Both the position numbers and the translations under genes were made by a program. Source: Basidioascus undulatus (lineage: Eukaryota). From it: a stretch of DNA of 54,900 bases. The notes beneath the pieces are model-generated. The model ran no database searches. It saw nothing but the letters and a program-made list of their open reading frames with translations, and was not told the DNA's origin. The stretch covers positions 1 to 54,900 of the forward strand of contig JTLS01000049.1 in NCBI GenBank assembly GCA_000826855.1, read 5' to 3'. Below, in pieces: positions 1 through 54,900 of this stretch; position 1 is the first letter of the stretch; each line of letters starts with the position of its first letter.

Positions 1-33
1 CCCCCTTTCCCCTTCCCCCTCCCCCTTTTCCCC
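1..33 (+). promoter_or_regulatory. Pyrimidine (C/T) tract upstream of OLE1
   Basis: Pure C/T run ~40 nt before the OLE1 ATG; CT-rich leaders are common in highly expressed fungal genes. Confidence 0.35.
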
Positions 34-71
34 GTCACCACCACCGTCTTTGCCGACTCCAATAGACAACG

Positions 72-2677
72 ATGGTCGACGTCCAGCCCCGCCTTCGCAC
101 GCCGCCGTCTTCGGACGGGGAGATCAGCCCGCCCATGAGCCCGGAGCAGAAGCCCGCGAAGTTCGGCGCTGGGGATGTGCCGCAGCTCGACAAGCGCACC
201 GATCGTGAGTGGCAATTTACCCTGCACCGAAGACTCAGCCGCTACCAATGTACAGCACGGAGAACTGACAAGGTGGCGATACACTCCGACATGCAGGCCC
301 GATCGATGCCGACATCGAGGACAACTACGTGCAGCGCACGCTCGCGGCGACCAAGCCGCTCCCTCCGGTCACCCTCAGTAACTTCTGGACTGAGTTGAAC
401 TGGCTCAACGTCGGTGCGTCGCCCTTGGCTTAAACTCTGGAAACCGGGATGTAGCTGACATTCCTTTGTTTCGCCACAGCGTTGTTGACCATCATCCCCG
501 CCATCGCCTTGTACGGCATCGCCACCACTCCCCTGAACTGGAAAACGGGGCTGTTCAGCGTGTTCTGGTACTACGTGACCGGGTTGGGTATCACTGCGGG
601 TGCGTTGTTGCAGAGGTTTTGTGTGCGGGATTTGCCGCAGCCGATGCTGACAAGTATCTGCGATGCGTCTCGCTCAGGCTACCACCGTCTCTGGGCGCAC
701 CGCGCATACAACGCGTCTGTCCCGCTTCAGTGGCTCCTCTGCTTCGCCGGCTCGGGCGCCTGCGAGGGTTCCATCAAGTGGTGGTGCCGTGGCCACCGCG
801 CTCACCACCGCTGTTCGTCCATTCCCACTGCTCACAGCGTCTTCGCTTGCCTTGGTGCTGACTTTTGCCCCGTCCTATACAGACACCGACACCGACCTTG
901 ACCCGTACAACGCGCACAAGGGCTTCTGGTACTCCCACATCGGCTGTCAGTCCCAGCCTCGTACTTCTGCCCTCCAATGTTCAGCTTCTGACGGGGCTTC
1001 GTTCGATGCCAAACAGGGATGCTGATCAAGCCCCGCCGCAAGCCTGGTGTCGCCGACATCTCGGACCTTACGCGTAACCCGATCATCCGGTGGCAGCAGA
1101 AGCACTACCTGAAGATCATGCTCGCAATGGCCTTCCTTGTCCCGACTGTCGTCCCCGGCCTCCTCTGGGGCGACTGGCGCGGCGGCTACTTCTACGCGGG
1201 CGCTGTGCGCCTGACGTTTGTCCACCACGTACGTCTCCTTTCCTTTCTTGGAACGTGGTGAGAAATGGCCGAGGATTGACGGGGGTTTGGTCATCGTTCG
1301 TTACAGTCGACCTTCTGCGTCAACTCGCTGGCGCACTGGCTCGGCGAGCGGCCCTTCGACGACAAGCACACCCCGCGCGACCACGTCCTTACCGCGCTCG
1401 CCACTGTCGGTGAGGGTTACCACAACTTGTGCGTTCTTTCTAAAGTACCTGCTTTGCGATCGTGATAAACAACTGACACTGCCTCCTGGTTGTAGCCACC
1501 ACCAGTTCCCGATGGTACGCGACGCAGTGCGATGTCGCCTGCTTTCCAAGCAAATTGCTGACTCTTTTACCTGGTTCTCAAGGACTTCCGCAATGCCATC
1601 AAGTGGTACCAGTGCGTGTTTTAGAGTTGATCATTCCTCTTGCATATGTTGACGACGTGCACACTCCTTCAGGTACGACCCCACCAAGTGGTTCATTAGC
1701 GTCTGCCATCTCCTTAGCCTCGCGTCCCACCTCAAGGCTTTCCCCAAGAACGAGATCCGCAAGGGCCAGCTCACCATGGAGCTCAAGCGCCTCAAGGCGG
1801 ACAGCGACGAGCTCGTCTGGCCCGTCGACGCAGACGACCTCCCCGTTGTGTCGTGGGCTGCGTGTAAGTGTCTCTTTCGTTGACTTCCGACTGCAATTGA
1901 CGTTTATGTCCTTGCTCTATGCAGTCCAGGAACAGAGCAAGATTCGCCCCCTCATCCTGATTTCCGGCTTCATCGTCGACGTCAGTTCGTTCATAAACGA
2001 GCAGTGCGTCTTCCTTCCCCCATCTGCACTTCTTCGTTTTTCTTCTTTGTCTTTCTTCTTCTTTCTCTTCTATCCCATCTGCCCTTTTTGTCTTCCTTCT
2101 CTTTTCAATCTGCATTTCTTTGCCGCACAGTCTCTGACATCGCTCCTCCGACCTCAACAGCCCCGGTGGCCGGCACCTCCTCCAAAAGATGATCGGCCGC
2201 GATGCGACTACCGCGTTCAGTGGAGGCGTATATGAACATTCGAATGCAGCGCACAACCTGCTCGCGATGATGCGCGTCGGCGTCCTCGAGGGCGGCATGG
2301 AGGTCGAGCACCTCAAGATGGAGCACGCCGAGGCTGCCCGCGCCGCCGCTGCCGACCTCCCCACGCCCGCCGAGGAGGTTATTGCGCCCGAAGTGTACTC
2401 GAGCGAGATCTCGCCCGAGGACGCCCCCGAGGGCTTGCTGCGCGCGAAGACGTACATCCCTCCCTCTCAGGTGCGCCCCCCTTCCCTCCTTTCCTTGAGT
2501 GCAGAGCGACCCATGTTGACACTGGTTTACTCTCCTCAGGTCCTCCAAATTGTCGACATGCGTGAAGAGCGCTTCGCTGCGGCTGCGCATCGTGCGCAGA
2601 ACACGTCGACGACGATGGTGGACCAGGCGGAGATCCAGCGGCGACTGGAGAAGAGCGCGTACCCCGTCTCCGTATGA
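72..2677 (+). CDS. OLE1: Delta-9 stearoyl-CoA desaturase with C-terminal cytochrome b5 domain (multi-exon)
   Basis: Spliced exons give the three His boxes HRLWAH, HRAHH and GEGYHNFHHQFP, plus [21 protein letters not shown] and the b5 motifs [36 protein letters not shown] at 72, TGA at 2675-2677, GT-AG introns between. Confidence 0.96.
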
Positions 2678-4266
2678 CCGGCGCGCATTTTTCTTTCTTC
2701 TCCTTCTCTATCACTCTTCGCTGCTGTTGTCTTTGCTGTTGCTGCATGATCGATTTGTCTATCCCTGGGGTTTAGCGGCTTGTCTGGGTCTTTTTCGAAG
2801 GGCTTGAATTTGCCTAGATGCGCCGCTGGCTTCGTCATTGATTCGTTTAGCTCGAACGCATTATGTCCTTGCCTTTGCACACTTCCATTCGCTTTACGAA
2901 CACACTTCTACACGTACACGATCCCTGTCGCAACGCTGGTATTCTTCGCCGGTGGCGCAATGCGACGTACCTCATGAACTTGTGACGAAACATATCTGCT
3001 GTCATGTGTGCGCTTCGGCTGAACTCTTGGTGCTGAGTTACGCTGCAAGTTGAAAGCGCTTGCGAGCAAGAAGGGAGAACAGGGTAGTTATCTCGGTGGT
3101 GATGTAGCGAACTTGATTGTAGCGTGGGTGTTTTTCCTCGACTTCCGAGTTACTGACCATGTTGCTCTTCTGTATGACATGTCTAATTTCTGGATCTGTT
3201 CTTCCACGAAGAACAGAATACGACGAATTTTCCATTGAAGCAGGTCGTGTAGGCTCCTGGCTCGGCGACTGCGACCGGCCTGGGGCTGTTGATTGATGCG
3301 ACAAGCTTTTGGTTGATCCCAGTTGTCTGTTAGAATCGAGGTGCAACGCAGCCTGTACACCCAGCCGATGACAGCAGATAAGTATTGGTAGTCAGTTGAA
3401 GCCTTGTAAGACAGAACCTGACTTCCGGTATACTCGTTCAAGAGAGTGTGACGTGCTGTACATCAGTGTACACTAGGACTTCCAGAGGGTGTTGTGCTGA
3501 ATATATGTAAGAGGTCTCCGTTGATTCCGCTCGTAGGATGATCAGAGTGTCTTGGACGTACTCGCATCCTCCGGAAACCTGCAGCTGTCCATGGACCCTG
3601 CCTCCCCTTTTTACGTCTTGCTACTACTAAGGATGGGTGGAAAGGGCGCACATTGAGACTCACTCTAGTTTTTATGAGAATCTGCGGATCGGACTGATAG
3701 CTTGTCATTGGAGGAGCACTTCTTGGAGGGTGCCGGGCGAGAGCAACAAGAGAGGTTGCCCCATGGCTGGCTCTGGCATGTAGGCGAGCATATCGGCTGA
3801 GGTTCTCGGTCAATGCGCATACTTTCAGCCTGTACCCGGTGTCTCGATGCCGTTTCAACTTTCTACATTCACGAGTCTGCACAAGGATCGAGCCTTTCAG
3901 CACTGTTTCTCGTCTGAAGTGCAACCGAAAATTTCGGGTGTAGGGTTCATGGACTTAGTTCTGCATAACTTCACGGTTGCCACTGTTCGGAATAATGCAA
4001 ATGTGGATATCAGAATCGCTAGCAACGTTCTTCAAGAGCCGCACGTCAGATTCAACATCGCAGCCATGTGAACTTGGCTTTACCTTCTACCCTAAATGTC
4101 CCCGACAAAATTTATCGCAGGCCCTAAGCGTGTGGTGATATGCGGGCAGGCTACCGCGTGGACGTTTCCAGGTTCCGCTGCCGCTGCCAACGGCGCCGTT
4201 GGTCGCTCGCAAAGCCTCAACCACTGCTACCCTGCCAACCTTATTTCAGATAACTCGATCGATTCG

Positions 4267-5386
4267 ATGTCATTGCCGGACGAGTTCGCCAACCCAGTGT
4301 CGCCTCAAAGCGATGCTATGAACCGGAACTTCGAGGCTCTCGCGGTCCCGTTCGCCCAGTTCGGTGCGGCCATGACCGAGCTAACCAGAAGTCCAGGACA
4401 GCGTACTGCTGCTTCAAGCGCGTATCGCACAGCTTGAGGCGGAACGGGCTGAGCTCGTCAAGGCTGCCGAGACCCAGAGGGCCAGGCTTACTGAGGAGCT
4501 CGAAGCCGCCAACTCGCGCGGGGAGTCGCTCGCTGCCGACCTCACGAGCACCTGGCGAGGGAGAACGAGGAGCTCGACCGTCTCCAGGAGGAGAATAGGG
4601 TGCTGAAGGTCTAGGTAAAAGGCTTACACGGCTTGGTCATCGCTGAAGTCCAGCGGGCGAGCGACATCGAGTCGAACCGGCTCATCGCTTCAGCGCAGCA
4701 CGCCATCGGCTCTTCGAAAGGCCATGCATTCCCTGCCTCCTCCCAATTGCCTCCCAGACATCTACTCTCACTCCTTGCCCTAGTACTCACGGCTCCGCCG
4801 GACCGCCCCCTGCTCGGCAAGCTCCGAACCCGCTCCCCTCGGACTTTCGCGACTTGATATCGAAGTTCATCAAAATCCAGCTGCGAACGATCTGCTCCAG
4901 ATTCAATGCGAGCTGCTGGAGAAAGAGCTTCTCTACTGGAGTCACCGGGTGGGCAGTCTCGACCCTACTCTTACCGAGCCCCAGAAACGAACGATCTATC
5001 TTCAGCCGCTTGCTGGTCTCCCTTGAGGAGACTCAGGTGAGTGCTCTGGTCTAATCCTCAGTATGTAAAGAGGTCCTTACTGTATGATCCGTCTAGTTTG
5101 ACGAAGGCTACAACTTTACGATCGCTCACGGCAGGGATGCTTTCCGCGACTGGGTCGGGAAGGATGCTGCCGCTTGACTGCCGTGGAAGACTCGAACCAC
5201 GTCGTCCTCAAGTCCATCTTGTCCATGTTCCAGTCGCTCAAAATCGGCCCGCACTACCAGTTCCGGGGGCACGAGGATGAGGTGGAGGCGCTTGGACAGC
5301 GCGAGCGCAAGCGTCAGCGCACAAGCAAGTCGATGGAAGCGGAGGGCAGCCGCAAGTGGGTGCTGGGATGGAATAGCTGTTTATGA
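4267..5386 (+). pseudogene. Disrupted gene for a coiled-coil protein of unknown function
   Basis: MSLPDEFANP..., then LLLQARIAQLEAERAELVKAAETQRARLTEELEAAN and RENEELDRLQEENRVLKV*VKGL lie in different frames with no usable intron between them; in-frame TAG near 4612. Confidence 0.45.
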
Positions 5387-5875
5387 AGGGGGTTTGTGTG
5401 CTTGAGCGTAGGGTAGAAGAGGTAGGCATGAGTGCTCCCTATTTCCGACGTGTGCTGGCTGCGTTACGGTAAATTCTCACTGCGGTTGAAAGCTCAGGCT
5501 CACGCAACGAGACAGCAGGTGCAAAACATACGTTGTAGTGCTTATTTCATTTTAATATTGATTCATGTACATATGGCACCAAAATTAACCTTCTGAACTC
5601 GGCCGCCTGCACTGTCTAAGCAGCCTCCAATTCCTCCCATTCATCGCTTCTGAGGCGCAAAAGACCGCCGTTGATTGTGAGTGTGGGATTCATCAGTCTA
5701 GTCTTGAGTACAAGTGCTAAATCACATGTAGCGGAACGCGCTCTCGGGGCGCTCTCAGTGCAGTCCAGCTACGTTTGTGGCGGACAGCAACCTTCTCAGA
5801 TAATTCACCACGCTCTGGTTGACACTCAGAACGGCTTGAGACGCTGGGTCATTGAATGGGCAAGTTGATGATTCG

Positions 5876-6660
5876 GTAGACCTTTTCCTGGGCGACGGTC
5901 AACGGGCGTCGTCGTGCAGTCCGTGACCTGGTCAAGTACTCGGGTTCAGCAAAGTTTTGAGAAGAGGGGGCGCAGGGGTATGTAAGGCATATTCTCAAGG
6001 TCTGGGACTGCTTAGATTAAGTCATTGTCTACCTGTTTGTTGCTCCTCCGGTCAGTACCCTGTGTTTGCGTCGGACAATTGTCTTCACGCATCGGTGCGT
6101 CCCGGTTCACTCCGGTTGACTATATAGTTATGCACGGGTCGGTGACTGACCTGCAGCTTTTAGGTTACTTCCTGTACCATAAGCGTCTCGAGCAGCCCTT
6201 TGGTACCGCCACCCGGCCGATGACATCTTCATCGACCTGGTCGGCAACCACGGGCGCATTGAGGTCGCTGTGCGCAAGTAATCAGTCGTAAGACTTTTCC
6301 CTTTCGATTTCGAGCAATTTGTTGTTTTTAGCTGATGTTTTTCATCCTTTTTCAGTCGTCTATACCGATGGACTGGTGCGCATATGGGTTGGTAGTGGGG
6401 TAGCGGGTTCTGGTGGGTTTAGAAGAGCGTCTCGATGCTCGGGCTTTTGTTGCTTTCTCTTTCCTTGGGTTTTCTGCCTTGCTCCTTTCGTCTCCTTCCT
6501 TTTTGACTGTCTCTTTCATGTTCAATGATTTTGAATACTGCTCGCATATCACATGTCTCTCTCTGATGTTCCATTTGCGTGCTTGAGCAGTGTGTCAAGC
6601 TGACGCTCTTCATCCTTTCGCACGACGAGTGGAGGACAATCGTGAACCGTCTTGGGATCG
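5876..6660 (+). pseudogene. Inverted, degenerate partial duplicate of the ACL1 3' end (last exons, introns, 3'UTR)
   Basis: 6163-6281 reads GYFLYHKRLEQP(frameshift)[25 protein letters not shown] versus ACL1 [38 protein letters not shown]. 6356-6597 is the near reverse complement of 8414-8648; weaker similarity extends back to ~5876 (matching ~9120). Confidence 0.92.
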
Positions 6661-7578
6661 TATGTGCGTACCGTCTTCCAAATCAAAACCTCAGCAGCCG
6701 GTCAACCATACGCACAAATTTCAACCGTGTACCTTGCATCTTGACTCCAGGTCTTCACATTGTGCGTGCTATCCCTGCCCAAGCTATCGTTACGGGACCT
6801 AGCTGGTTGCGCATTGCGCATTGCTAAGTAGACTGAGGGTAGTTTTTTGCTCTATTCATGATATCGACTAGATTCTGTGTTGAGCTCAGAGTCATACTAC
6901 TTTCTCAGGATTCACCGGAGTTCCGGTAGACAGCGGTGATGCTGCAACAGAGGAAACCGACCATAGTCTGCTTTCCGTCTGATTCGTGCAAGGAATCCCG
7001 CTTGCAATGCTCTAGCAAGCAGTAAAGTGATCAGCAAGACCAGCCAATTGCGCTCATATCCCCTTTCTCTTGTATCGCGACAACTTGCCGTACGACCGCT
7101 AGCATGTTGAGCTGTTTTGAACTCACACCGAGATTGGACACCAATTGTCAATCAGGATGCTTCCGTTTCTTATAATCGGGTGTAGCTCACAAGTTCAGGA
7201 GCCTGATGCGACCTCTGCAGCGTTGCTCATCGGTTGCTCATTTTCGGCGTGCCCGCGAATACAGTCTGGCCATCCCTGTCCCTACAGCAGAACGGTTCTG
7301 AGCCCTTGTCAAAATTAACCCCAATTTTGACCACACGGCTCCTATCAGAGCTCAAGGGAAGTGACGGGAAACCTTGAAGTTGCATGCGCAATTCACTGAC
7401 AGCTGGATGGGAAGACCACTACAGCGGCCCGTCGCACTCACGTAACCTCGAAACTCAGAATGTTGACGCCGACACTCCGTTCCGAATGAGTCGAAACTGG
7501 AAGTCTACGCTCCTTTGTGCCCTGTTCTTTACCAACATCCGCTTGGCCCCACAGCTACAACCATCCCAAGCGCCAGCA

Positions 7579-8066
7579 ATGGACATCATCGCCGACCTGC
7601 CCGCCTTCACGCCCGTCCCTCTCTTGATCTTCGTCTTTGCTTTCATTCTTACACCCAAGCTGACGGGCCGCCGGGTTGACTCTCATCTCCTTCGCGATCT
7701 ACCTCGTCGCGCTCGCGCTCACTGCCTTCGCGGCGGGCGTGCTCCGTTTCGCCTTCCGCCGCACGAAAAACAACGGCGCCGAGGGGGAAGACTACCTTCT
7801 GCTGGGTGGCTGACAAGATCTTGGTTGCTACCATCGATTAAGTAGTGTTGTCGCTTACTGGAGCCCTTGACCTGTTGGCGTTTGCAAGAAAATCTCACCG
7901 GCACGTTGGGCATGGGCAGGTTCTTCGTGATCACGAACGTGTGGCTCGGCATTCTCGAGGCCAAGGAGAAGGCGGAAGAGAAGGAGAGGGAGAAAATGCG
8001 GTCGGGGCGGAGGCGAAGGAAGAGGTGGGCTACGGTACGAGGGCCAAGATGGAGAAGCAAGGCTGA
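7579..8066 (+). pseudogene. Degraded small membrane-protein gene in the inverted-repeat spacer
   Basis: Hydrophobic segments MDIIADLPAFTPVPLLIFVFAFILT, GLTLISFAIYLVALALTAFAAGVLRF and GMGRFFVITNVWLGILE fall in different frames with stops. Confidence 0.3.
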
Positions 8067-8351
8067 TGGGACATTGTTGGGGGTGGGCTCTGACTGTTTT
8101 TTGCGAATCGCCAGAAGCATCACCCTTGGTCGTTCTGTAGAGCGTCGCGGCTGTTGTTTGCGCATACTTCACAAGTCCGGCGAACAGTCGAAAAGCGACA
8201 ATGCTAGCGCAGTACTGGGAGGTGTAGGGAGTTAGAAGGTGTGAAAGCCCCTTCATCACCACTGAAATATACGAACCGGGACGACAGGAGAATGTAACTT
8301 CGAGCTGGGTCAGCCCAAGACACACTCACCGTCAATCATGTCATTGCAATC

Positions 8352-9120
8352 CTACTCCGAAGGCGGTTTACGACCGCTATCCATCGCCGTGGAAGGATAG
8401 GGAGCGTCACACATGACACACTGCCCGAGCACGCAGATGGAACATCGGAGAGACATGTGATATGCGAGCAGTATTCAAAATCATTGGACATCACAGAGAC
8501 AGTCAAAAAGGAACGAAAGGAGCAAGACAGAAAACCCAAGGAAAGAGAAAGCAACAAAAGTCCGAGCATCGAGACGCTCCTCTAAACCCACCAGAACTCG
8601 CTACCCCACTAACAACCCATATGCGCACCAATCCATCAGTCTAGACGACTGGAAAAACGGAAAGAAAAAGTCAGCTATGGAATATCTCAGACTTGAAGAA
8701 TGGAAAGTCCTTACGACTGATTACTTGCGCGCAGCGACCTCTACGCGCCCCTGGTTGCCGACCAGGTCAATGAAGATGTCATCGGCCGGGTGGCGGTATA
8801 GGGGCTGCTTGAGGCGCTTCTGGTCGAGGAAGTGACCTGCAAACAAACGGCATGTCAATTCCCGAACATATTATCAATTGGAGCGAAACGGGACGCACCG
8901 ATGAAGCCAGTCGCACGACCCAGAACGAAGAGACCGTTCAGGGTACCGATCTTAAGAGCGACGACCAGGTAAGCTGCTGTTTCCTCAAAGCAGGCGCATT
9001 CTACAGAAATGCACCTTCATGTACTCCTGCGCCTCCTCCTCGGAGAACGCGCCCGAGCACTTCAGCAGGTCGCAGAACGCGGCGGCGATACAGCCGTCGA
9101 CGTTGAGGATGAGGGTCTAC
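8352..9120. repeat. Right arm of ~0.8 kb inverted repeat (native ACL1 3' end); partner 5876-6660
   Basis: Direct reverse-complement comparison, e.g. caatgattttgaatactgctcgcatatcacatgtctct (~6523-6560) versus agagacatgtgatatgcgagcagtattcaaaatcattg (~8449-8486). Confidence 0.92.
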
Positions 9121-12100
9121 GAGAGTCGCCAATCTTAAGTCAGTTCATAGTTCGGGTGGGCTCTAAGGTAAGCAACGAGATTTTGACGCACGTCCTTCTT
9201 CGCAGAAGTAACCGCCTCAACGCCGAGCGCGTAGTCCATGGTGGAGTGCGACGGGAAGTGCTTCTTGACGAACTCCTTGACGAGCTCGACACGAAGGTCA
9301 GGGTTGGTCTGCACCAAGCAGAAGCGCGTAAGCTAGGTGATTCGAAGGAAACCGATGAAACGTTGGGAAAGAGTGGCGCACCTTAGACTTGATCTTGTGG
9401 CCGATACCGGGGATGAGTTTGTTGGCCTTGCGCATCGAGTCTGCGAAGCGGGACGGCGGGGATATCAGCCGCGACTCGCGTGTACGGGGTGACGAGGGAA
9501 ATCGGCGGACGCACCGACAAACTCGCGAGGAGTCATGCCCGACTCGAGACCACGGGTGAAGTTCTCGGCAGCGCCGTCGAGCGCACCACCGAAGCGGTCA
9601 CCGATGGTGAGGAGACCCGCGCAGAGGGAGGAGATGAGGTCCTTGCCGGCACGGGCGGTGATGATGGTGTTCATCGCACTGTACGCCTCTCAAATTGAGC
9701 CTGCTGTGCCCAGCAGCGTCAAGAGAGGAAGGGAAACGCACCCAGAGACGGCGGGGCCGTGGTCGGCGGTGAGCTGGAGGGCCATCTCGAGGAACTTGCA
9801 CGCGTACGGCGGCAGGCGGCGCTTGAACCACAGGAGCGAGATGACACCGCCCATACCAATGTCCTCCTTGAAGACGTCGGAGATACGCATGCCGGCGTAC
9901 AGGAGCTCCTGGCCGCGCTCGTCGGAGATGGTCGAGATGAAGGCGGCGGGCTTGCGGATCATGCCGAGCTCCTATAGAGGGGAAAGCATCGAAACCACTC
10001 GAATCAGCAAGGACAGCCAGGATTGCGAATGAAGGAAGGAGAAAAGACGAACCTGAGCCCACTTGTAGTCCATCGGGATGGTCGGGGGCTCGCGCTCGGG
10101 CGCGGGGTGGATCGTGCCGTTAGCGACGAGGGCTTCGTAGGTCGCCTTGAGGACGTCCGGGAGCTCCTCGAACGTGTCGGGGACAATGATGCCTGCGGCG
10201 CGCATGCCGGCGTTCTTGGCGTCGGCGGTCTCGCGGTCCGAGTTGGCCATCGAGCCGGCGTGGCCGAACTGGACCTCGGTCGCGAACATCTTCGCGCACG
10301 TGCCGATCGCCCAGGCAACGATGGGCTTCTTGATCGTGCCGTTCTTGACGGCCTCGATCACGCGGTATTCCTCGATACCGCCGACCTCGCCGAGGAGGAC
10401 GAGCATCTTGCAGGCCGGGTCCGCCTCGTAGCGGAGGAGGTGGTCGATGAACGTCGAGCCGGGGTAGCGGTCACCGCCGATGGCGATACCCTCGTACGTG
10501 CCGTCGGTCGTGAAGGAGAGGATGTTGTTGAGCTCGTTGGACATGCCGCCGGACTTGGAGACGTAGCCGACCGAACCGGGGCGGTAGAGCTTGGACGAGA
10601 GGATGTTGTCCATCATACTGCGGGAAGCACGCGTTATCAGTTCACTGGTCTCTCCTTGCAATTAGAGACGAGTCGTGAAACTCACCCGCCTGAGTTACCG
10701 ATACGGAAGCAGCCAGGCTTGATACCGCCGACGGTCGCCGGGCCGATGATGAGGACCTTCTTCTTCTCGGCGGCGACGAGGATCTCGCGGGCGAAGCGCT
10801 CGGGGACACCCTCGGCGATGATTGCGATCGACTTGATCTGAGGGTACTTGAGGATCTCGAACGTCGACGAGTAGACCGAGCGCGAGGACGAGAAGTTGAC
10901 GACGCAGTCGGCGTCGGGGTGCTTCTTGATCGCCTCAGCGACGGTGGTGTAAACGGGGAGGAGCGTCTCCTTGGTGCCCCAGTCTGTGGGAGTACCGCGG
11001 CAGGTCAGACACGCGCCCGGACGTCATGAGCGAGGTGCGAACGGAGACTCACAGAACTTCTGAATGTGGTGGCCACCGAAGGGGTAGATCATGGCGGCGA
11101 CGGAGGGCACCTTACGGCCGCAGGAGTAGTCGAAGTCGAGCATGCCTTGGATGGCGCGGGGCTGGAGACCGAAGACGAGCGAGCGGGTCTCAGCGTCGAA
11201 GGGGCGGTACCATGGGCGGCCGGCGCTCGCACTCGCGTCGCCGGTCTCGAAGTGGACGATCCCGTCCGAGGGCTGGGTGCGCTCGCCGGAGCGGACCTCG
11301 ACCGAGCCGAGGGTGGGGCTGCCGGGCGCGGGCGTGCCGGGCGCGACAGCGGGGGTGTTGGCGCCCGAGGCGGGCAGGGAGGCCGGGACGCGCGCGGCCT
11401 TGTTCGAGGGCTTGATGCCGAGCGCGAGGGGAACGATGGCGGTGATGTGCGTCTCGGGGCCGTAGACCTTGATCTCGACGCCGAGCGACTCGCCAAGGAG
11501 GCGCATCGCTTTGAGGCCCTCCTGGTAGTTGGGGCCACCGCGGCGGACGTAGATCTTGACGTTGTGATTGATCAGCGGCTGCTTGAACTCCTTGAGCGCG
11601 CGGATAATGCCCTTGAACGTCGCGGCGACGTTCGTGAAGTTGGCGATACCACCGCCGATGATGAGCAGCTTGCCGTCCGGGTGGGGCGTGCCGCGAGTGA
11701 TCAGGTCGACTGTGATAGACCATGAGCTCTTTGCTCTAATTGAATTTATAAGGAAAGGACGCACTGATGGTCTTCGCGTACTCGTAGGTCTGGCCCTCGG
11801 TCGGGGCGCCAGAGTACTCGCCGTAGTTAGCGAGCTCGTGGGCAAAGCCAGCAGCGGCGATAGCGTCCCTGTTTATGCCGCATGATCAGCGACAAGCGCG
11901 AGACAAAGCTTAAGCGAGTACGCACGAGTAGACGACGGAAGCACCACCACCGGCAACCATGGTCCAGATGCGGCCGGCGGGGTTAAGGACGGTTAGCTTG
12001 AGAGAAGCACCAGTCGAGCCGTCGAGCTTCTGGATGTAGGCCTCCTCCTTGGTCATGTCACGGCCGAAGGGCGCTGTAGAAGACGAAATACAGTCAGCGT

Positions 12101-13184
12101 GGAGTGCGATTGGATTGTCATGGGTCAAAAGCACGCACCAGGCCAGACCATCGGAGGGCCGCGGTCAGAGGTCACAGCGCCGTTGACGGCCTCGCCGACG
12201 GAGGTGTCGCGAGCGATCGCCCTGCACAAATGCGGTTCAGTTTGGTTCGTAGAAGCCCGCCAGTCAGAAAGCACCTACCACTTAGGACCGCAGAGGTAGT
12301 CGGCGGTCTGGTCGAGCTTGGCGGCCATGTCGAGGAAGTGGATCGTCGGCGGAGAGGACTCGGTCTTGTCGAGGCAGATGAGTGGGTTGATCTCGAGGTA
12401 GGCGAAGTGGAGGTCAACGTAGACGGCGTAGAGGCGCTCGACGAACTCGACGAGGACATCCTGCTTCTCCGCGTCGGTCACGTCCTTGAGGAGCTCGGCC
12501 TTGAGCGTCTCGCGCGAGGGGAACGCGCCGTCGACGGCGATGAGGACCTTGCGCGCCTTGGCGTCGACGTCGCCGACGTCGACACCGCCTTCGTGCGTGA
12601 ACAGGATGTAGTCGCCCTCGCGCACGGAGTTGATGCAAATGTAGTACTCGGTGTGCGACGGGTGGGGGAGGAAGGGCTCGACGATGAAGTTGTTGAGCGT
12701 GCCGACCGTGGACTCAACCTTGAGCGGATAGGAGAGGCCATCAGCGATCAGATGAACGTCGCTGAAGGCTCAAAGAAGACGCACCTTGACCTCCTTGCCC
12801 GCCCGCTCCTCGATCCACTTGCGGCCCTCCTCCCACGTCTTGTTCAGGCCGAGCAGGCCAGCTTTGCCACGGCGCTTGATGAGCTGATCAGGCTTGACGA
12901 CGAGCTTCTCCTTGAAGACCCAACCGGGGAGCTTGTCGTCGGATGTGATCTGGTTCGAGGCCGGGTCCCAGGCGACCTGGGCGACGTGCGGCTTGGGGAA
13001 GACGAAGTTGGGGCCAGGCTTGATCGAGTCCGAGACGGCGGGGGCACGGGGGAGGTGGTACGAGAGCAGGAGCTTCGCGTCTGTGGGAGGGCAAGCACAG
13101 GAAGAAGACCCAGGATGAGCACAGGAGCAGCCTCGCAGGCAAACGAGCAGACTAGCCGTATTCGCGGATGGCCTTGGACGACAT
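8721..13184 (-). CDS. ACL1: ATP-citrate lyase, single-chain (fused) form, multi-exon
   Basis: [103 protein letters not shown] (phospho-His), [32 protein letters not shown]. Stop TAA at 8721-8723. Confidence 0.97.
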
Positions 13185-16100
13185 TTCTGTTTGGGCGGGC
13201 CATCGTCGATGATTGTCAGGAACCGAAGGACGAAGGACGCGGACATGTGCACGCCCACGCGGCGGCGATCAGCGAGAAAGCAAACGCGCACGCACCGGAC
13301 GAGTTGGTGCGTTCGTTAGAGGGTGATCAGGGCAACGACTCGGAGGGCCACGGAGGGAGTTCTGTCCATGTGAGAGGGAGGAGGAGCGGATGCAACCGCA
13401 GATGTTAGCCAGGCTTATAGAAACCAAGGGCGAGGGCTACAGAAACCCCAGCGGGCGCAAAGGCGCCCCCCACGCTCCCGTTCCGGCCCCTTCCGACAAG
13501 GCCAGGACCGGAGGGCGGCCGGCCAGAAAGAGGGGTGCAACTTGCCTACAAATGCGAAACGAGTGGAAACGACAGAGAGAGCAAAGGGGAATGCAGGAAA
13601 AGAGCGGTGCGGGCAGGACAAGGGGGAGGAGGTTTAAGGAAGAGAGAAGAGTGGGACAGCGAGCCAGCCGTACGGCAGGTGCGGCGCGAGCTCGAATCGG
13701 CTGAGGTTCGCGAGCGGTGGGGACGCCGACAGCTGGTTGGGGACGCTGCGCCCTTTCGATTGCCCTTGCCCTTGCCAGCGCACTGCATGTTGACTTGCCT
13801 TGACTTGCCTTTGCGTCACTCAAACCTTGATTATCTTTCATCCACGCTTGATCGATCTCAATCCGGCCCGCAAATGATCTAATCCCACCCCTTTCCCCAT
13901 CCAACTCTGCCCCATTCCACGCCAGATCAACCGCTGAGCAGCGACGGCCTGAAAATGCTTAAAATGACCACCGTGGAGTACTGTACTTGTGCCTGTATTT
14001 TAGTGCTGCCAGCTCACGCGACACGACGCTCAGGGCGCTCGATCGACCGACCTTGCACCTTCCCTCTTTAGCGCCCACTCGCATATTTGCTTCCGAGCGC
14101 GTCTTCTCTTTTCGTCGTCGACTGTGCACCAGAGAACGCAATTCTTGACATCCATTGATGATTGTTTTACTGTAAAAAATAGAAGTCCTTTCCCCAACAA
14201 CGCCACCCAATTACCTTGAAGGCGCTGCAGTACTAGTGCTTCCCACACACTCGTGAAGAGTCGTGCCCCCTGGCAGCCATGATCAGCGAGACTCATAACA
14301 GTCCAGCAGTCCCTCCTCTCGCCTCCAATGTACCACCTACCTTAGCCGTACCTACATCAAATCAGACTAAAGGCTCTTCATGGACGCCTTCATGGACTCA
14401 CCCTGCTTGCTCCCTGACGACTGCAGCGAACACACGGACACCCGCCAGCAGCGGCAAGCTTGATCCTCGGCTTGCGCAAGCGCAGGCGGAGTTCCGGGTT
14501 GCCGGCGGGCCGCGTAGTCGCTTTCTTCAGTACAGCGGTGGCTAGGTTCTTTCTTTGTCTCTCGCGAATTCTCTGAGGACATCACCCTGCTTAGCGTCAA
14601 ACGGAGCCCTTGCACTGCCCTAGTTGTACTGCAAAATGCATGCTCTCGTACATAGCACTAGCAGCTCCCCGGACAAGGCCCCGCGCCGAGGAGCGTCATT
14701 AGGCGCTAAAGATGTGTGTTTAACAATTGGCGAGCGGATAAAGAACCTGGCCACCACTGTATGTTGGTGTATGACTCCTTTCTTATGTGATACGTACGCA
14801 TTACAATCAGTTGGATTGCACACAACAAGCACAGATGAGAAAAAAAAAAAAGCAGCGACAGTGGCAGACGAAAGACGACCTCGGTTTTCTGCGTGCCCCT
14901 GCACTAAAGAGATCAGGAGCGTTTTGAAGCTAGCATAACAATAGCAGGACCTAGTTTCTACTTCACTGAATGTGACTTGACAGTGAGATGGTCGCTTCTC
15001 TGCTCTTGCATGTAGTCGAAAGAACCTCAGGCCACACTGCACAGACAGCTGTAGATCTGTTTGACTCCTCATTTTCCTGACATTTATCTTTCAGAAGACC
15101 GTAGTATTTTCAGCTCCTCATGCCTTGTCAACACCACACGAACTCGCCATCTCGAGAACGTCTTTCACAGGGTCTTCTCGACGATGGACAGGTCAGCCGT
15201 TGACCAAGAGGGATTCGCTGTGAATTTTCGAAGCGTTGGTTTAGAACTTCCTGGAATCTTGCAACTCCGTGAACGCGAATCATCCATTTGCGATGTTCTT
15301 GTCCCCCTTGTCCTGATCATACCGCAGCCGTACTTCGCTTGGCTGTAGCTGTGCTGTTGATTCAACTCAGCTAAACTGTGACTCAAATATCCTGCACGGC
15401 CCTTGTATATCTTTCCACGATAAATTCAGCTTAGGCTTCAGTCTGATCCTGACGGCATTGAAGGTGAGTGCTGGTGCGCTAGTCGATGGTCAGCTGGGTT
15501 CTGGGAATTGGCAGTGTTTTCCCTGCTGCAGGCTTGGACTACCAGGTGTTGGTATCGACTCGCCTATTTCCAAGAATTGTTCGGTCTGGTGTCGTGAATC
15601 GCTTGAGATCGGCTGCCCGTATGAACTGTCTACTTCCCTTCTTTCAGTGAGACGCCTTCCACGTTTTTTGGAAAGGCGCTGCACATGGCGCCCCGTCTCC
15701 ATCCTTTAAGTGTAAGGTAAATTTTATCTTGAACCTTCGAAATGTTTCATCTACCATTATCAAGCTCCCAAGGCTGTTGAATGCCCCCTTCCCCGATTGG
15801 TCTACCGAGTGGAGTGAACGCAATGCCACCCGAGCTCAGGGCTGACAATCGCTTTCTCGTCTCCTTCACACTTTGTAGCAAAAGGGTGTAAAATCCCCAA
15901 TACTTGTCTCGAAGGTCTTTTAAAGTGGGTTGGCCCGATGTACAGGAGCTGACGTCTCACTTGAAAGTGCCCATCAACTCACTTTCAGACATTCAACCTG
16001 CACGGTCGGTTGAGGTCATACGTTCTCTCGCTGGGAAGGCCGTCTCCTGAGGGGTGCCTGAGTTGAACCCTTCCGAAAGAATATGAAGATGACTTCTGTA

Positions 16101-38342: not shown

Positions 38343-38414
38343 TCCTCCTTAGCTCAGTGGTAGAGCGCGTCACTAGTAATGACGAGGTCAGTCGTTCAAG
38401 TCGGCTAGGAGGAA
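38343..38414 (+). tRNA. tRNA-Thr(AGT), intronless
   Basis: Full cloverleaf: TCCTCCT/AGGAGGA acceptor, GCTC/GAGC D stem, CGTCA-CTAGTAA-TGACG anticodon arm, AGTCG-TTCAAGT-CGGCT T arm, discriminator A, then a T-run terminator. Confidence 0.95.
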
Positions 38415-38619
38415 CTTCTTTTTGCACATTCATCTTTTGATACCCTTTGTTAATGCCCAATAACCCATTATTTGGTGACAGAAAAGCATTGAACGCTTGG
38501 GACAAGACACCACGGCAAGCGGAACCTTCTGCATTTTGGCGACGCAGCCTTGCGCGTAGGGTTGAAGGCGGGGCTTCCACGCTCGAAGCAAGTCATTCTC
38601 GCTTGACTTGCACCCCTCC

Positions 38620-54317: not shown

Positions 54318-54373
54318 TTCCTCCTTGACCTCGTCATTACTAGTGACGCGCTCTACCACTGAGCTAAGGAGGA
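54318..54373 (-). tRNA. T-arm-less copy of tRNA-Thr(AGT) (56 nt; pseudo-tRNA or armless variant)
   Basis: Minus strand reads TCCTCCTTAGCTCAGTGGTAGAGCGCGTCACTAGTAATGACGAGGTCA-AGGAGGAA, identical to 38343-38414 except that GTCGTTCAAGTCGGCT (16 nt) is missing; T-run follows. Confidence 0.85.
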
Positions 54374-54900
54374 AGTTGGTTGGTTTTTTATATTTTATCT
54401 ATCTGAATATCATTTGTGTCATCAAACACTGCCAATTGAATATTGGCACTTCCTTAGAAGGTACTAGATTCCCAAACTGCCGCAAAGGGAAGCAAAAATA
54501 CATCCAATTGTCCGGTAAAACAGATGTGAGACAAACAGCCTCCTTGCACCGTTGTGAGAAAGATGGTACCTTTTAGAGCCGGAACAGGTGAGCTTTACGA
54601 CCCTGTCCAAGCTCGATTCTCACAGTGGCCCGTACAGATTTCGGATGGTAGTCCCGCTGCGAAATTTGCAGTCCGACTACAGTGACTGTATGGTCCCGGC
54701 AGACCATATGCACGGGATGCAACAAACCGTTGTAGGCGCAGTGTGCAACCGCAATCCTCACGTGCAGCGCTTGAGCGCGTCGCATCCAAGCCTTAATGAT
54801 ATGCATCTGGGTTCCGAATACAAAAAAAAAATCAGAACTGTGTGGCGCAAACAGCCCAAGGAGAGTACAAGAGTAGGAAAGGGGAGACCAGAGACAAAGA

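Follow-up and report, generated by a model that had tools for sequence, protein, structure and literature searches.

Partial copies of a gene that lie near or opposite their parent are known from several systems. In yeast, the defining outcome of cDNA-mediated gene conversion is the loss of introns in the recipient; endogenous siRNAs from hairpin loci are known from the pseudogenes of mouse oocytes and from the chalcone synthase inverted repeats of soybean. For the paralogues of HMA4, a model has been put forward in which the success of conversion falls with local divergence, with the result that exons are homogenised and introns keep diverging (10.1101/2025.10.29.685298); conversion from arm to arm has been described for palindromes (PMC4772468), and small RNAs derived from pseudogenes for rice (PMC2708354). 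The locus described here belongs to a window of 54,900 nucleotides (the whole stretch analysed, positions 1 to 54,900 of contig JTLS01000049.1 of the Basidioascus undulatus assembly GCA_000826855.1) and consists of the 3' end of an ATP-citrate lyase (ACL) gene, the right arm, and of an inverted copy of it, the left arm, which on balance is probably an unprocessed pseudogene fragment, i.e. a partial segmental duplicate, partly re-homogenised by DNA gene conversion between the two arms (Table 1).

The parent gene encodes a fused ACL, the ATP-grasp, citrate-binding and CoA-ligase domains being found on one strand and in one spliced transcript (Pfam matches Citrate_synth_N, 4.5e-56; Citrate_bind, 7.3e-42; Ligase_CoA, 2.2e-19). 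The transcript is represented by contigs of X3, a run labelled 'DNA?' whose contigs are nevertheless spliced and which provides the only transcript-like contig set; a single contig of 3273 nt follows ACL from 9059 to beyond 13080. The joints seen in X3 (9116/9192, 8950/9015, 8834/8897 (cut +2) and 8648/8715) bear out the gene model of the initial annotation, including its non-coding 3'UTR exon. The last of these joints, absent from the DNA runs X1 and X2, removes an intron which begins 6 nt past the stop codon and whose ends, CT..AC on the plus strand, are GT..AG on the minus strand; transcript evidence for an ACL intron in this position is an annotation by-product of the analysis. The same intron is probably lineage-specific, as judged by eye from the sequences of 64 related loci, in none of which a splice donor within a few bases of the stop codon was obvious. 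X3 contigs are missing from 8026-8584, as deduced from bin means (670.5 x 384 = 2362.2 x 109, where 109 is made up of 45 nt of exon and the 64-nt side of the joint), although contigs cannot show where transcripts end.

In the left arm, copies of the last three ACL coding exons, of their introns and of the 3'UTR are found, the segment 5876/5924-6657 on the plus strand matching 9120/9072-8356 on the minus strand. Four inverted-repeat blocks (I1-I4) pair 6090-6597 with 8414-8903 at 83-94% complementarity, and a weaker homology extends to the left as far as about 5924 (local score 41 versus 16.8 +/- 2.2, z 11, with 0 of 300 shuffles reaching 41); by local alignment against shuffles, no homology between the arms was detected beyond 5875 or past about 6660, and apart from the two arms the window holds no other copy of the ACL 3' end. 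An inverted duplicate facing ACL across a spacer of about 1.7 kb had been claimed beforehand, and the repeat blocks and the significant homology, whose detectable ends are indeed about 1.7 kb apart, confirm it. The copy was also said to be frameshifted and non-coding, and so it is: the last coding exon carries a 2-nt insertion, the penultimate one a 12-nt deletion and a 4-nt insertion, the ORF list contains no surviving ORF in the ACL frame within the arm, and none of the left-arm ORFs has a Pfam match. Intron copies are retained at 5987-6050, 6095-6163 and 6288-6355, the latter being a 68-nt segment with GT..AG ends and a diverged core; at the edges of the patch 6298-6347, the alignment shows that the splice-site motifs (5' and 3') and a branch-point-like motif are kept. 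Homology to the parent that includes the introns, a destroyed reading frame and a missing 5' part are the features of an unprocessed pseudogene fragment.

Table 1. Coordinates of the ACL gene, the two inverted arms and the divergence segments of the left arm (positions of the window).
Feature	Coordinates	Strand	Basis and remarks
Left arm, non-coding, unprocessed partial inverted duplicate of the ACL 3' end	5876..6657	+	Inverted-repeat blocks, alignment
Old low-identity part	5924..6203	+	HMM low state, 0.65 over 5876-6203; K2P 0.256, 52 gap columns
High-identity tract 1	6204..6297	+	Pairs with 8798-8704; 95 columns, 0.94; K2P 0.055; block I2
Low-identity patch, copy of the 3'UTR intron core	6298..6347	+	55 columns, 0.58; K2P 0.26, 13 gap columns
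High-identity tract 2, 3'UTR exon block	6348..6597	+	Pairs with 8657-8414; 251 columns, 0.91; K2P 0.060; blocks I1, I3, I4
Spacer between the arms	6658..8355	.	No Pfam-recognisable ORF
Right arm, true ACL 3' end	8356..9120	-	Sequence and X3 joints
Right-arm coding exons	9116-9015, 8950-8899, 8836-8715	-	Stop codon 8723-8721
Intron of 66 nt in the ACL 3'UTR	8649..8714	-	X3 joint from 8648 to 8715, skipping 66
Right-arm 3'UTR exon	From 8648 downwards	-	X3 joint
Fused (single-polypeptide) ACL gene	8414..13300	-	Many short introns; 5' limit approximate

It is extremely improbable that the left arm is an artefact of assembly in which an allele of the ACL 3' end was mis-joined or collapsed. In X1 and X2, which are DNA runs and possibly the source data of the assembly, hence not independent of it, the de Bruijn contigs do end at 31-mers common to both arms (6444-6473/6532-6561 and 8448-8477/8531-8560), and at k = 31 the contigs by themselves leave the order of the 58-nt middle pieces unfixed; yet the private sequence of each arm has a depth like that of the flanks (19-23 in X1, 41-57 in X2), contigs reach from unique flanks deep into each arm, one of 1946 nt crossing the spacer into both, and the arms differ by 6-40%, far above what is allelic, the right arm alone being joined to the rest of ACL. 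As to the surroundings, Pfam, run on 48 of the 56 listed ORFs, each of these 48 being 80 aa or longer and overlapping 1-9000, recognised nothing in the arms, the spacer or the left flank; in this region it matched a Cyt-b5 (2138-2674) and, below threshold, ABC_trans_N, and nothing else. On 4000-10000, Rfam gave 0 matches at E up to 1. The spacer carries one transcript-like X3 contig of 385 nt (7641-8025).

The identity between the arms, counted over all alignment columns, is far from uniform. It amounts to 109/124 (0.88) in the last coding exon and 221/242 (0.91) in the 3'UTR block, with transitions making up 18 of the 27 mismatches in these two blocks, and falls to 50/75 (0.67) in the 3'UTR intron, 47/73 (0.64) in the intron before the last coding exon, and 48/73 and then 48/122 in the sequence downstream of the 3'UTR block; the values estimated by eye in the initial annotation (about 88-91% in exon and UTR, mostly transitions, with diverged introns and downstream sequence) are thus reproduced, as is the degraded state of the two upstream exon remnants (75/113 and 32/56). 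The difference between the high blocks and the UTR intron has a Fisher p of 1e-6, which is overstated, the columns inside one complex change being non-independent. A two-state HMM, whose output was identical at switch values of 0.005 and 0.01, divides the alignment into the segments of Table 1. Besides the remnants of two introns and of the two upstream exons, the old part takes in the opening 40 nt of the last coding exon, which are about 75% identical; tract 1 covers the 3' two-thirds of that exon with the stop codon and runs on for 10 nt into the 3'UTR intron, and tract 2 sets in 8 nt before the 3' splice site. The third low part of the arms has a K2P of 0.196. The contrast between exons and introns previously noticed stands as far as high exon and UTR identity and low intron identity are concerned, but the tract borders miss the exon edges, and the only internal low patch carrying an 'intron' signal is 6298-6347. 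Two other origins of the mosaic were considered and rejected by eye. One is a micro-inversion of the intron core; the other would ascribe the older-looking part to RIP-like or CpG decay, but CpG counts are hardly reduced in the left exon copies.

The high tracts are far less diverged than the flanks of the same duplication (K2P 0.055-0.060 versus 0.20-0.26), and these two classes imply two ages, that of an old duplication and that of one later homogenisation skipping about 50 nt of intron core. It follows that some 350 nt were re-homogenised by something, and the earlier claim that neutral decay alone fails to explain the pattern holds. Since the K2P of the two high tracts is nearly equal, one event or two of similar age would fit; the distance of the intron patch, the same as that of the old flanks, fits unconverted old sequence. 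We infer that the homogenising agent was DNA gene conversion, and to the same order of deduction belong its direction and the copy's lack of function. The sequence of events is read as follows. A stretch of about 0.75 kb, from the last three coding exons with their introns through the 3'UTR to about 60 nt past it, was duplicated in inverted orientation at a distance of 1.7 kb downstream of ACL, and this duplicate would then have decayed unconstrained; much later, at about a quarter of the total divergence time, non-allelic conversion between the inverted arms would have re-homogenised 6204-6597 with 8798-8414, leaving out the intron core, too diverged and indel-ridden to enter or survive in a heteroduplex, unless the two flanking blocks were converted separately; since then the copy would have drifted to a difference of 6-9%.

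In favour of gene conversion, the tract borders are arbitrary with respect to the exons, and decay has gone as far in both upstream exons as in the introns; the left arm is plainly free of coding constraint, and the mismatches of its high tracts are of an ordinary kind; moreover, by analogy with the HMA4 model (10.1101/2025.10.29.685298), a mosaic of similar exons and dissimilar introns is a known and ordinary product of conversion that depends on divergence. Against it, the sole skipped patch lies wholly inside a real 66-nt intron, a coincidence estimated at about 1 in 20 for a random 50-nt patch placed within the converted span of 394 nt (HMM coordinates), and conversion between arms already about 25% diverged should be rare. 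A further point against conversion is that, when synthesis-dependent, it normally copies a continuous tract.

An explanation that does without conversion appears unlikely. It would involve either one duplication only, with a slower decay of its 3' 400 nt, or a younger partial duplication falling onto an old one; in the former case a transcribed paralogue or a chimeric gene would long have used the copy for its spliced 3' end or UTR and would have ceased to do so only recently. The splice signals, whose retention had been remarked before this analysis, speak for it: the GT..AG ends and the branch-point-like motif of both intron copies in the left arm are preserved, although the intron cores are unalignable, which could reflect past or present selection on a spliced transcript and is then counter to gene conversion; the equal distance of both high tracts is also in its favour. 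On the other hand, a 2-nt insertion just upstream puts the coding part of tract 1 out of frame, so that any constraint was not at the protein level, no ORF of a Pfam family lies upstream on the plus strand at 3000-5876, and a young re-duplication would have carried the intron core as well.

Conversion templated by RNA, in which a 5'-truncated cDNA of the spliced ACL mRNA would have corrected the old duplicate, is very unlikely. It would account jointly for the skipped intron core and for a homogenised stretch that starts within the last coding exon, as truncated reverse transcription would have it, and extends 3'-ward through the UTR; the loss of the intron between the converted exons that it leads one to expect has not taken place, however, the left arm retaining at 6288-6355 an intron-sized segment of 68 nt with its own diverged core. 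Besides, high identity reaches 8-10 nt into the intron at both edges.

A functional regulator in cis is likewise doubtful, and we give it little credence: antisense RNA from the left arm, or ACL read-through folding back on itself, would yield long dsRNA or siRNAs tuning the ACL mRNA, and selection, possibly helped by conversion, would maintain the match to the mature mRNA. Over about 345 nt (94 + 250 nt) the complementarity of the inverted arms is 91-94%, so that they could form long dsRNA; the unconverted patch is a real spliced intron, so the high tracts match mature-mRNA sequence; and hairpin siRNA loci derived from pseudogenes are already known (PMC2708354). The initial annotation had taken the identity to be preserved at the sites of pairing with the spliced mRNA, which the segmentation does not support: of the five exon segments, three show the old divergence (the opening 40 nt of the last coding exon and the two exons upstream of it). 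Tract 1 misses the exon edge, and two further exons of this mRNA have decayed entirely. Among the mismatches of the high tracts (13 transitions, 6 transversions), G:U-preserving transitions are not in excess over the others (7 versus 6), and divergence-dependent DNA conversion gives the same mosaic; the supposedly exonic tracts contain three indels, and, where pairing is needed for a long dsRNA trigger, selection on any one site would presumably be too weak to limit divergence over 345 nt to a quarter of the neutral value. The UTR block shows no self-structure (z +0.92 in the right arm, +0.73 in the left). X3 contigs, which cannot demonstrate absence, do not cover 3000-7640, the left arm included.

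Related loci bear both on gene conversion and on a regulatory role. Among ACL loci from metagenomes, of which 58 have a locatable 3' end, none of the 29 with at least 3.3 kb downstream has a second ACL 3'-end copy or a comparable arrangement there, and a tblastn search with the last-exon peptide placed all 64 matches on the ACL strand; on this basis the arrangement is, as judged from sequence, lineage-specific. No close relative was found: the best of the 80 metagenome loci has 88% protein identity, and a homologue of the UTR block was found in 0 of the 80. In the literature on ATP-citrate lyase, inverted repeats and basidiomycetes, no such arrangement of ACL appeared among the best 10 of 327 records, which is not proof of absence. 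The left arm might be a recently arisen, lineage-specific origin of dsRNA or of antisense RNA directed at the mature ACL mRNA, at its 3' end, with recurrent and possibly RNA-templated conversion maintaining the match, but such a role is improbable.

As the evidence stands, the preferred reading of partial re-homogenisation by DNA gene conversion makes of the locus a small, lineage-specific pseudogene fragment with a textbook mosaic of divergence, and it carries a caution: identity that is high in exons and low in introns between duplicates is, alone, no sign of selection at the RNA level. Were the regulatory role true, an inverted gene fragment would have become an endogenous silencing trigger for a central enzyme of lipid and acetyl-CoA metabolism in a basidiomycete-type fungus, i.e. 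a fungal metabolic gene would carry in cis an RNAi 'rheostat' built from part of its own sequence, which would be relevant to research on fungal RNAi and to the engineering of oleaginous fungi.

Compared with known systems, the ACL arms share with cDNA-mediated conversion and intron loss in yeast a homogenised 3' part of the mature mRNA from which the intron core is omitted, and differ in that the recipient keeps an intron-sized segment. With the hairpin loci of endogenous siRNAs, such as those of mouse oocytes, soybean and rice (PMC2708354), they have in common an inverted partial copy near its parent and a potential dsRNA against the parent mRNA; unlike these loci, the ACL arms are 6-9% diverged even at best. 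A further likeness is to unprocessed pseudogene fragments with interlocus conversion or concerted evolution, of which palindromes whose arms convert each other (PMC4772468) and the paralogues of HMA4 (10.1101/2025.10.29.685298) are examples: inverted arms close together on one chromosome, a partial copy with its introns retained, and one or more tracts of far lower divergence than the remainder of the duplicate. In distinction from these, the ACL case involves one gene and a short non-coding 3' fragment with tiny arms (0.75 kb), and its concerted evolution is deduced from a single genome; what it shares with the mosaics of interlocus conversion under the HMA4 model is that exon-like sequence is homogenised and the core of the intron diverged.

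The fused ATP-citrate lyase (ACL) gene was recognised from three Pfam domains in its exon ORFs, the ATP-grasp domain Citrate_synth_N (4.5e-56), a citrate-binding domain (7.3e-42) and a CoA-ligase domain (2.2e-19), the exons bearing them being linked by one 3273-nt spliced contig of sequencing run X3. The model of the 3' end (see table) was read from the sequence and then compared with contig joints: all its junctions occur as joints in X3 contigs and in neither of the two DNA runs, X1 and X2. X3, labelled 'DNA?', behaves as cDNA, since every joint listed, 15 out of 18, is bounded by GT..AG on the minus strand. The acceptor of the intron at 8951-9014 is AAG, not the usual CAG or TAG, and the X3 joint 8950/9015 is consistent with it, three letters being ambiguous; by eye, no obvious donor directly follows the stop codon in 64 related fungal ACL loci. 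Another X3 contig contains the ACL 3' end in spliced form between 9088 and 8585 (-), at a mean depth of 2362, the main ACL contig having 791; upstream of 9088 it continues with 255 letters that match nothing in the window even when up to 3 mismatches are allowed. This junction lies near where the duplicated segment has its outer limit (9072-9120) and has no AG ahead of it, and DNA contigs run continuously across it; template switching, trans-joining of RNA or chimeric assembly of the contig may account for it.

Features of the window and identity of segments between the two ACL arms (matches over all alignment columns; segments set by the ACL gene model)
Feature	Coordinates	Strand	Basis	Matches/columns	Identity
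Cytochrome b5-like haem-binding domain ORF	2138-2674	+	Pfam PF00173, 5.2e-08		
Fused ACL gene	about 13300-8414	-	Pfam domains in successive exon ORFs, spliced X3 contig		
ACL exon	9116-9015	-	sequence-derived, X3 joints		
ACL intron	9014-8951	-	sequence-derived, X3 joint		
ACL exon	8950-8899	-	sequence-derived, X3 joints		
ACL intron	8898-8837	-	sequence-derived, X3 joint		
ACL last coding exon (stop 8723-8721)	8836-8715	-	sequence-derived, X3 joints		
ACL 3'UTR intron (66 nt, GT..AG, begins 6 nt past stop)	8714-8649	-	X3 joint		
ACL 3'UTR exon	from 8648 downwards	-	sequence-derived, X3 joint		
tRNA-Thr(AGT) gene	38343-38415	+			
Upstream exon 1				75/113	0.66
Intron after upstream exon 1				42/69	0.61
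Upstream exon 2				32/56	0.57
Intron before last coding exon				47/73	0.64
Last coding exon				109/124	0.88
UTR intron				50/75	0.67
UTR block (3'UTR exon stretch)	6356-6597 vs 8414-8648			221/242	0.91
Downstream of UTR block				48/73, then 48/122	0.66, then 0.39

Four inverted blocks of 83-94% identity link 6090-6597 with 8414-8903 in a repeat search, with which MAFFT and a Biopython global alignment concur. Homology reaches leftwards to about 5924 (local score 41 against 16.8 +/- 2.2 for shuffles, 0/300) and rightwards to about 6657 (26 against 13.6 +/- 2.2, 0/300), and is absent beyond both limits by the same comparison; the duplicated unit thus measures about 0.75 kb, with 5876/5924-6657 (+) facing 9120/9072-8356 (-) tail to tail. 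The inverted, frameshifted non-coding copy across a spacer of about 1.7 kb, as claimed in the initial annotation, is real: the exon copies of the left arm are disrupted by 2-, 4- and 12-nt indels, no ACL-frame ORF is left, and the arm is non-coding. The UTR block has neither structure of its own in a self-folding test nor an Rfam match. Contigs of X1 and X2 cover both arms, each with its private variants and at a depth like that of the flanks, span the spacer, and are interrupted only at 31-mers common to both arms, which amounts to internal consistency only, because the assembly may have been made from these very runs.

Apart from this duplicate and a tRNA-like pair, the 54.9-kb window contains no repeat of 60 nt or longer. 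In that pair, 54326-54385 is a 60-nt, 93% inverted match to the 5' part and upstream flank (from 38331) of tRNA-Thr(AGT); ARAGORN calls no tRNA there, and the match may represent a second copy that is partial or bears an intron. No Pfam-recognisable ORF follows the cytochrome b5-like one in 3000-8400. Within the spacer, an unspliced 385-nt X3 contig (depth 88) covers 7641-8025, with short hydrophobic ORF pieces there on the plus strand (from the ATG at 7580; 7664-7813) and no Pfam or Rfam match; a small gene and a non-coding RNA are both possible.

The formal alignment bears out the identities first read by eye for exon, UTR and introns, and also the degradation of the upstream exon remnants. 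The exon bias itself survives in part: the high blocks differ from the UTR intron by a naive per-column Fisher test (p = 1e-6), but their borders are off the exon edges. A two-state HMM blind to annotation, with the same result at switch rates of 0.005 and 0.01, assigns to the high state 6204-6297 (tract 1; 95 columns, 0.94) and 6348-6597 (tract 2; 251 columns, 0.91), and all other left-arm sequence to the low state. The last coding exon is at the old level, about 75% by sliding window, over its first 40 nt; the tracts reach past the borders of the UTR intron, tract 1 by 10 nt and tract 2 by 8 nt; and of the three coding exons copied, two have decayed as much as the introns. Since tract edges miss exon edges and the upstream exons are decayed, the whole 'intron' signal is a single 55-column patch; as this may be one historical feature, the per-column p-value overstates the case. 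By our own estimate, the intron would wholly enclose a randomly placed patch of that size in about 1 case out of 20, a coincidence that is suggestive, not compelling.

Divergence falls into two classes, K2P being 0.055 and 0.060 in tracts 1 and 2 against 0.256 in 5924-6203, 0.26 in the intron patch and 0.196 in 6598-6657, with gap columns far more numerous in the low parts. Uniform decay after one duplication cannot give these classes, in agreement with the earlier argument that neutral decay ought not to split the segments. Because the patch matches the old flanks and the tracts match each other, the most economical history has an old duplication followed by later homogenisation of about 350 nt, in a single event or in two of like age, with the intron core spared.

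That the left arm is a regulatory hairpin or antisense source acting on ACL is improbable and gained no positive support here. In favour of a reading at the RNA level, the skipped patch is a real intron, as its X3 joint attests; against identity kept for pairing with the spliced mRNA, as had been proposed, stand the mismatch between high tracts and exon edges, three indels inside the tracts, ordinary substitutions devoid of G:U-preserving bias (7 versus 6 of 13 transitions), and the weakness that selection at single sites would probably have in a long dsRNA trigger. Conversion of the left arm from a cDNA of the spliced message would likewise skip an intron, but its expected signature is intron loss in the recipient, and the left arm still has an intron-sized segment.

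A metagenome scan with one ACL exon yielded 80 fungal loci (74-88% protein identity), relatives too distant for a concerted-evolution comparison. Across their 144 blastn hits, neither the UTR block nor the spacer has a nucleotide match and neither arm a minus-strand match; a tblastn search with the last-exon peptide gave 64 hits, every one on the ACL strand. ACL 3' exons could be located in 58 loci, 29 of them with at least 3.3 kb downstream, and self-BLAST found no second 3'-end copy in these, bar two oddities. In one locus (L055), 127 nt from the ACL 3' region (8619-8745) recur at 11960-12085 as a 99% direct repeat at the contig end, perhaps through tandem duplication or as an end effect of assembly; the other (L030) has a 63-nt palindrome (11709-11771) lying downstream, some 240 nt from the last ACL exon match that could be placed. 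The inverted arrangement is lineage-specific, because these relatives offer no second 3'-end copy or opposite-strand match.

Homogenisation of this kind between inverted arms lying close together is ordinarily the work of non-allelic DNA gene conversion, and that is the best, and a somewhat probable, explanation of the mosaic. The ACL 3' end would have been copied in inverted orientation long ago, the copy decaying as a pseudogene fragment; arm-to-arm conversion would later have homogenised the two tracts, its success falling with local divergence, so that the UTR intron core would have been left untouched. The feature is real but ordinary: a pseudogene fragment from the ACL 3' end, inverted and decaying, whose mosaic is probably due to gene conversion. 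In a recent modelling study (10.1101/2025.10.29.685298), divergence-dependent conversion produces a mosaic in which exons stay similar while introns keep diverging; the likeness to the present arms lies in similar exon sequence and a diverged intron.
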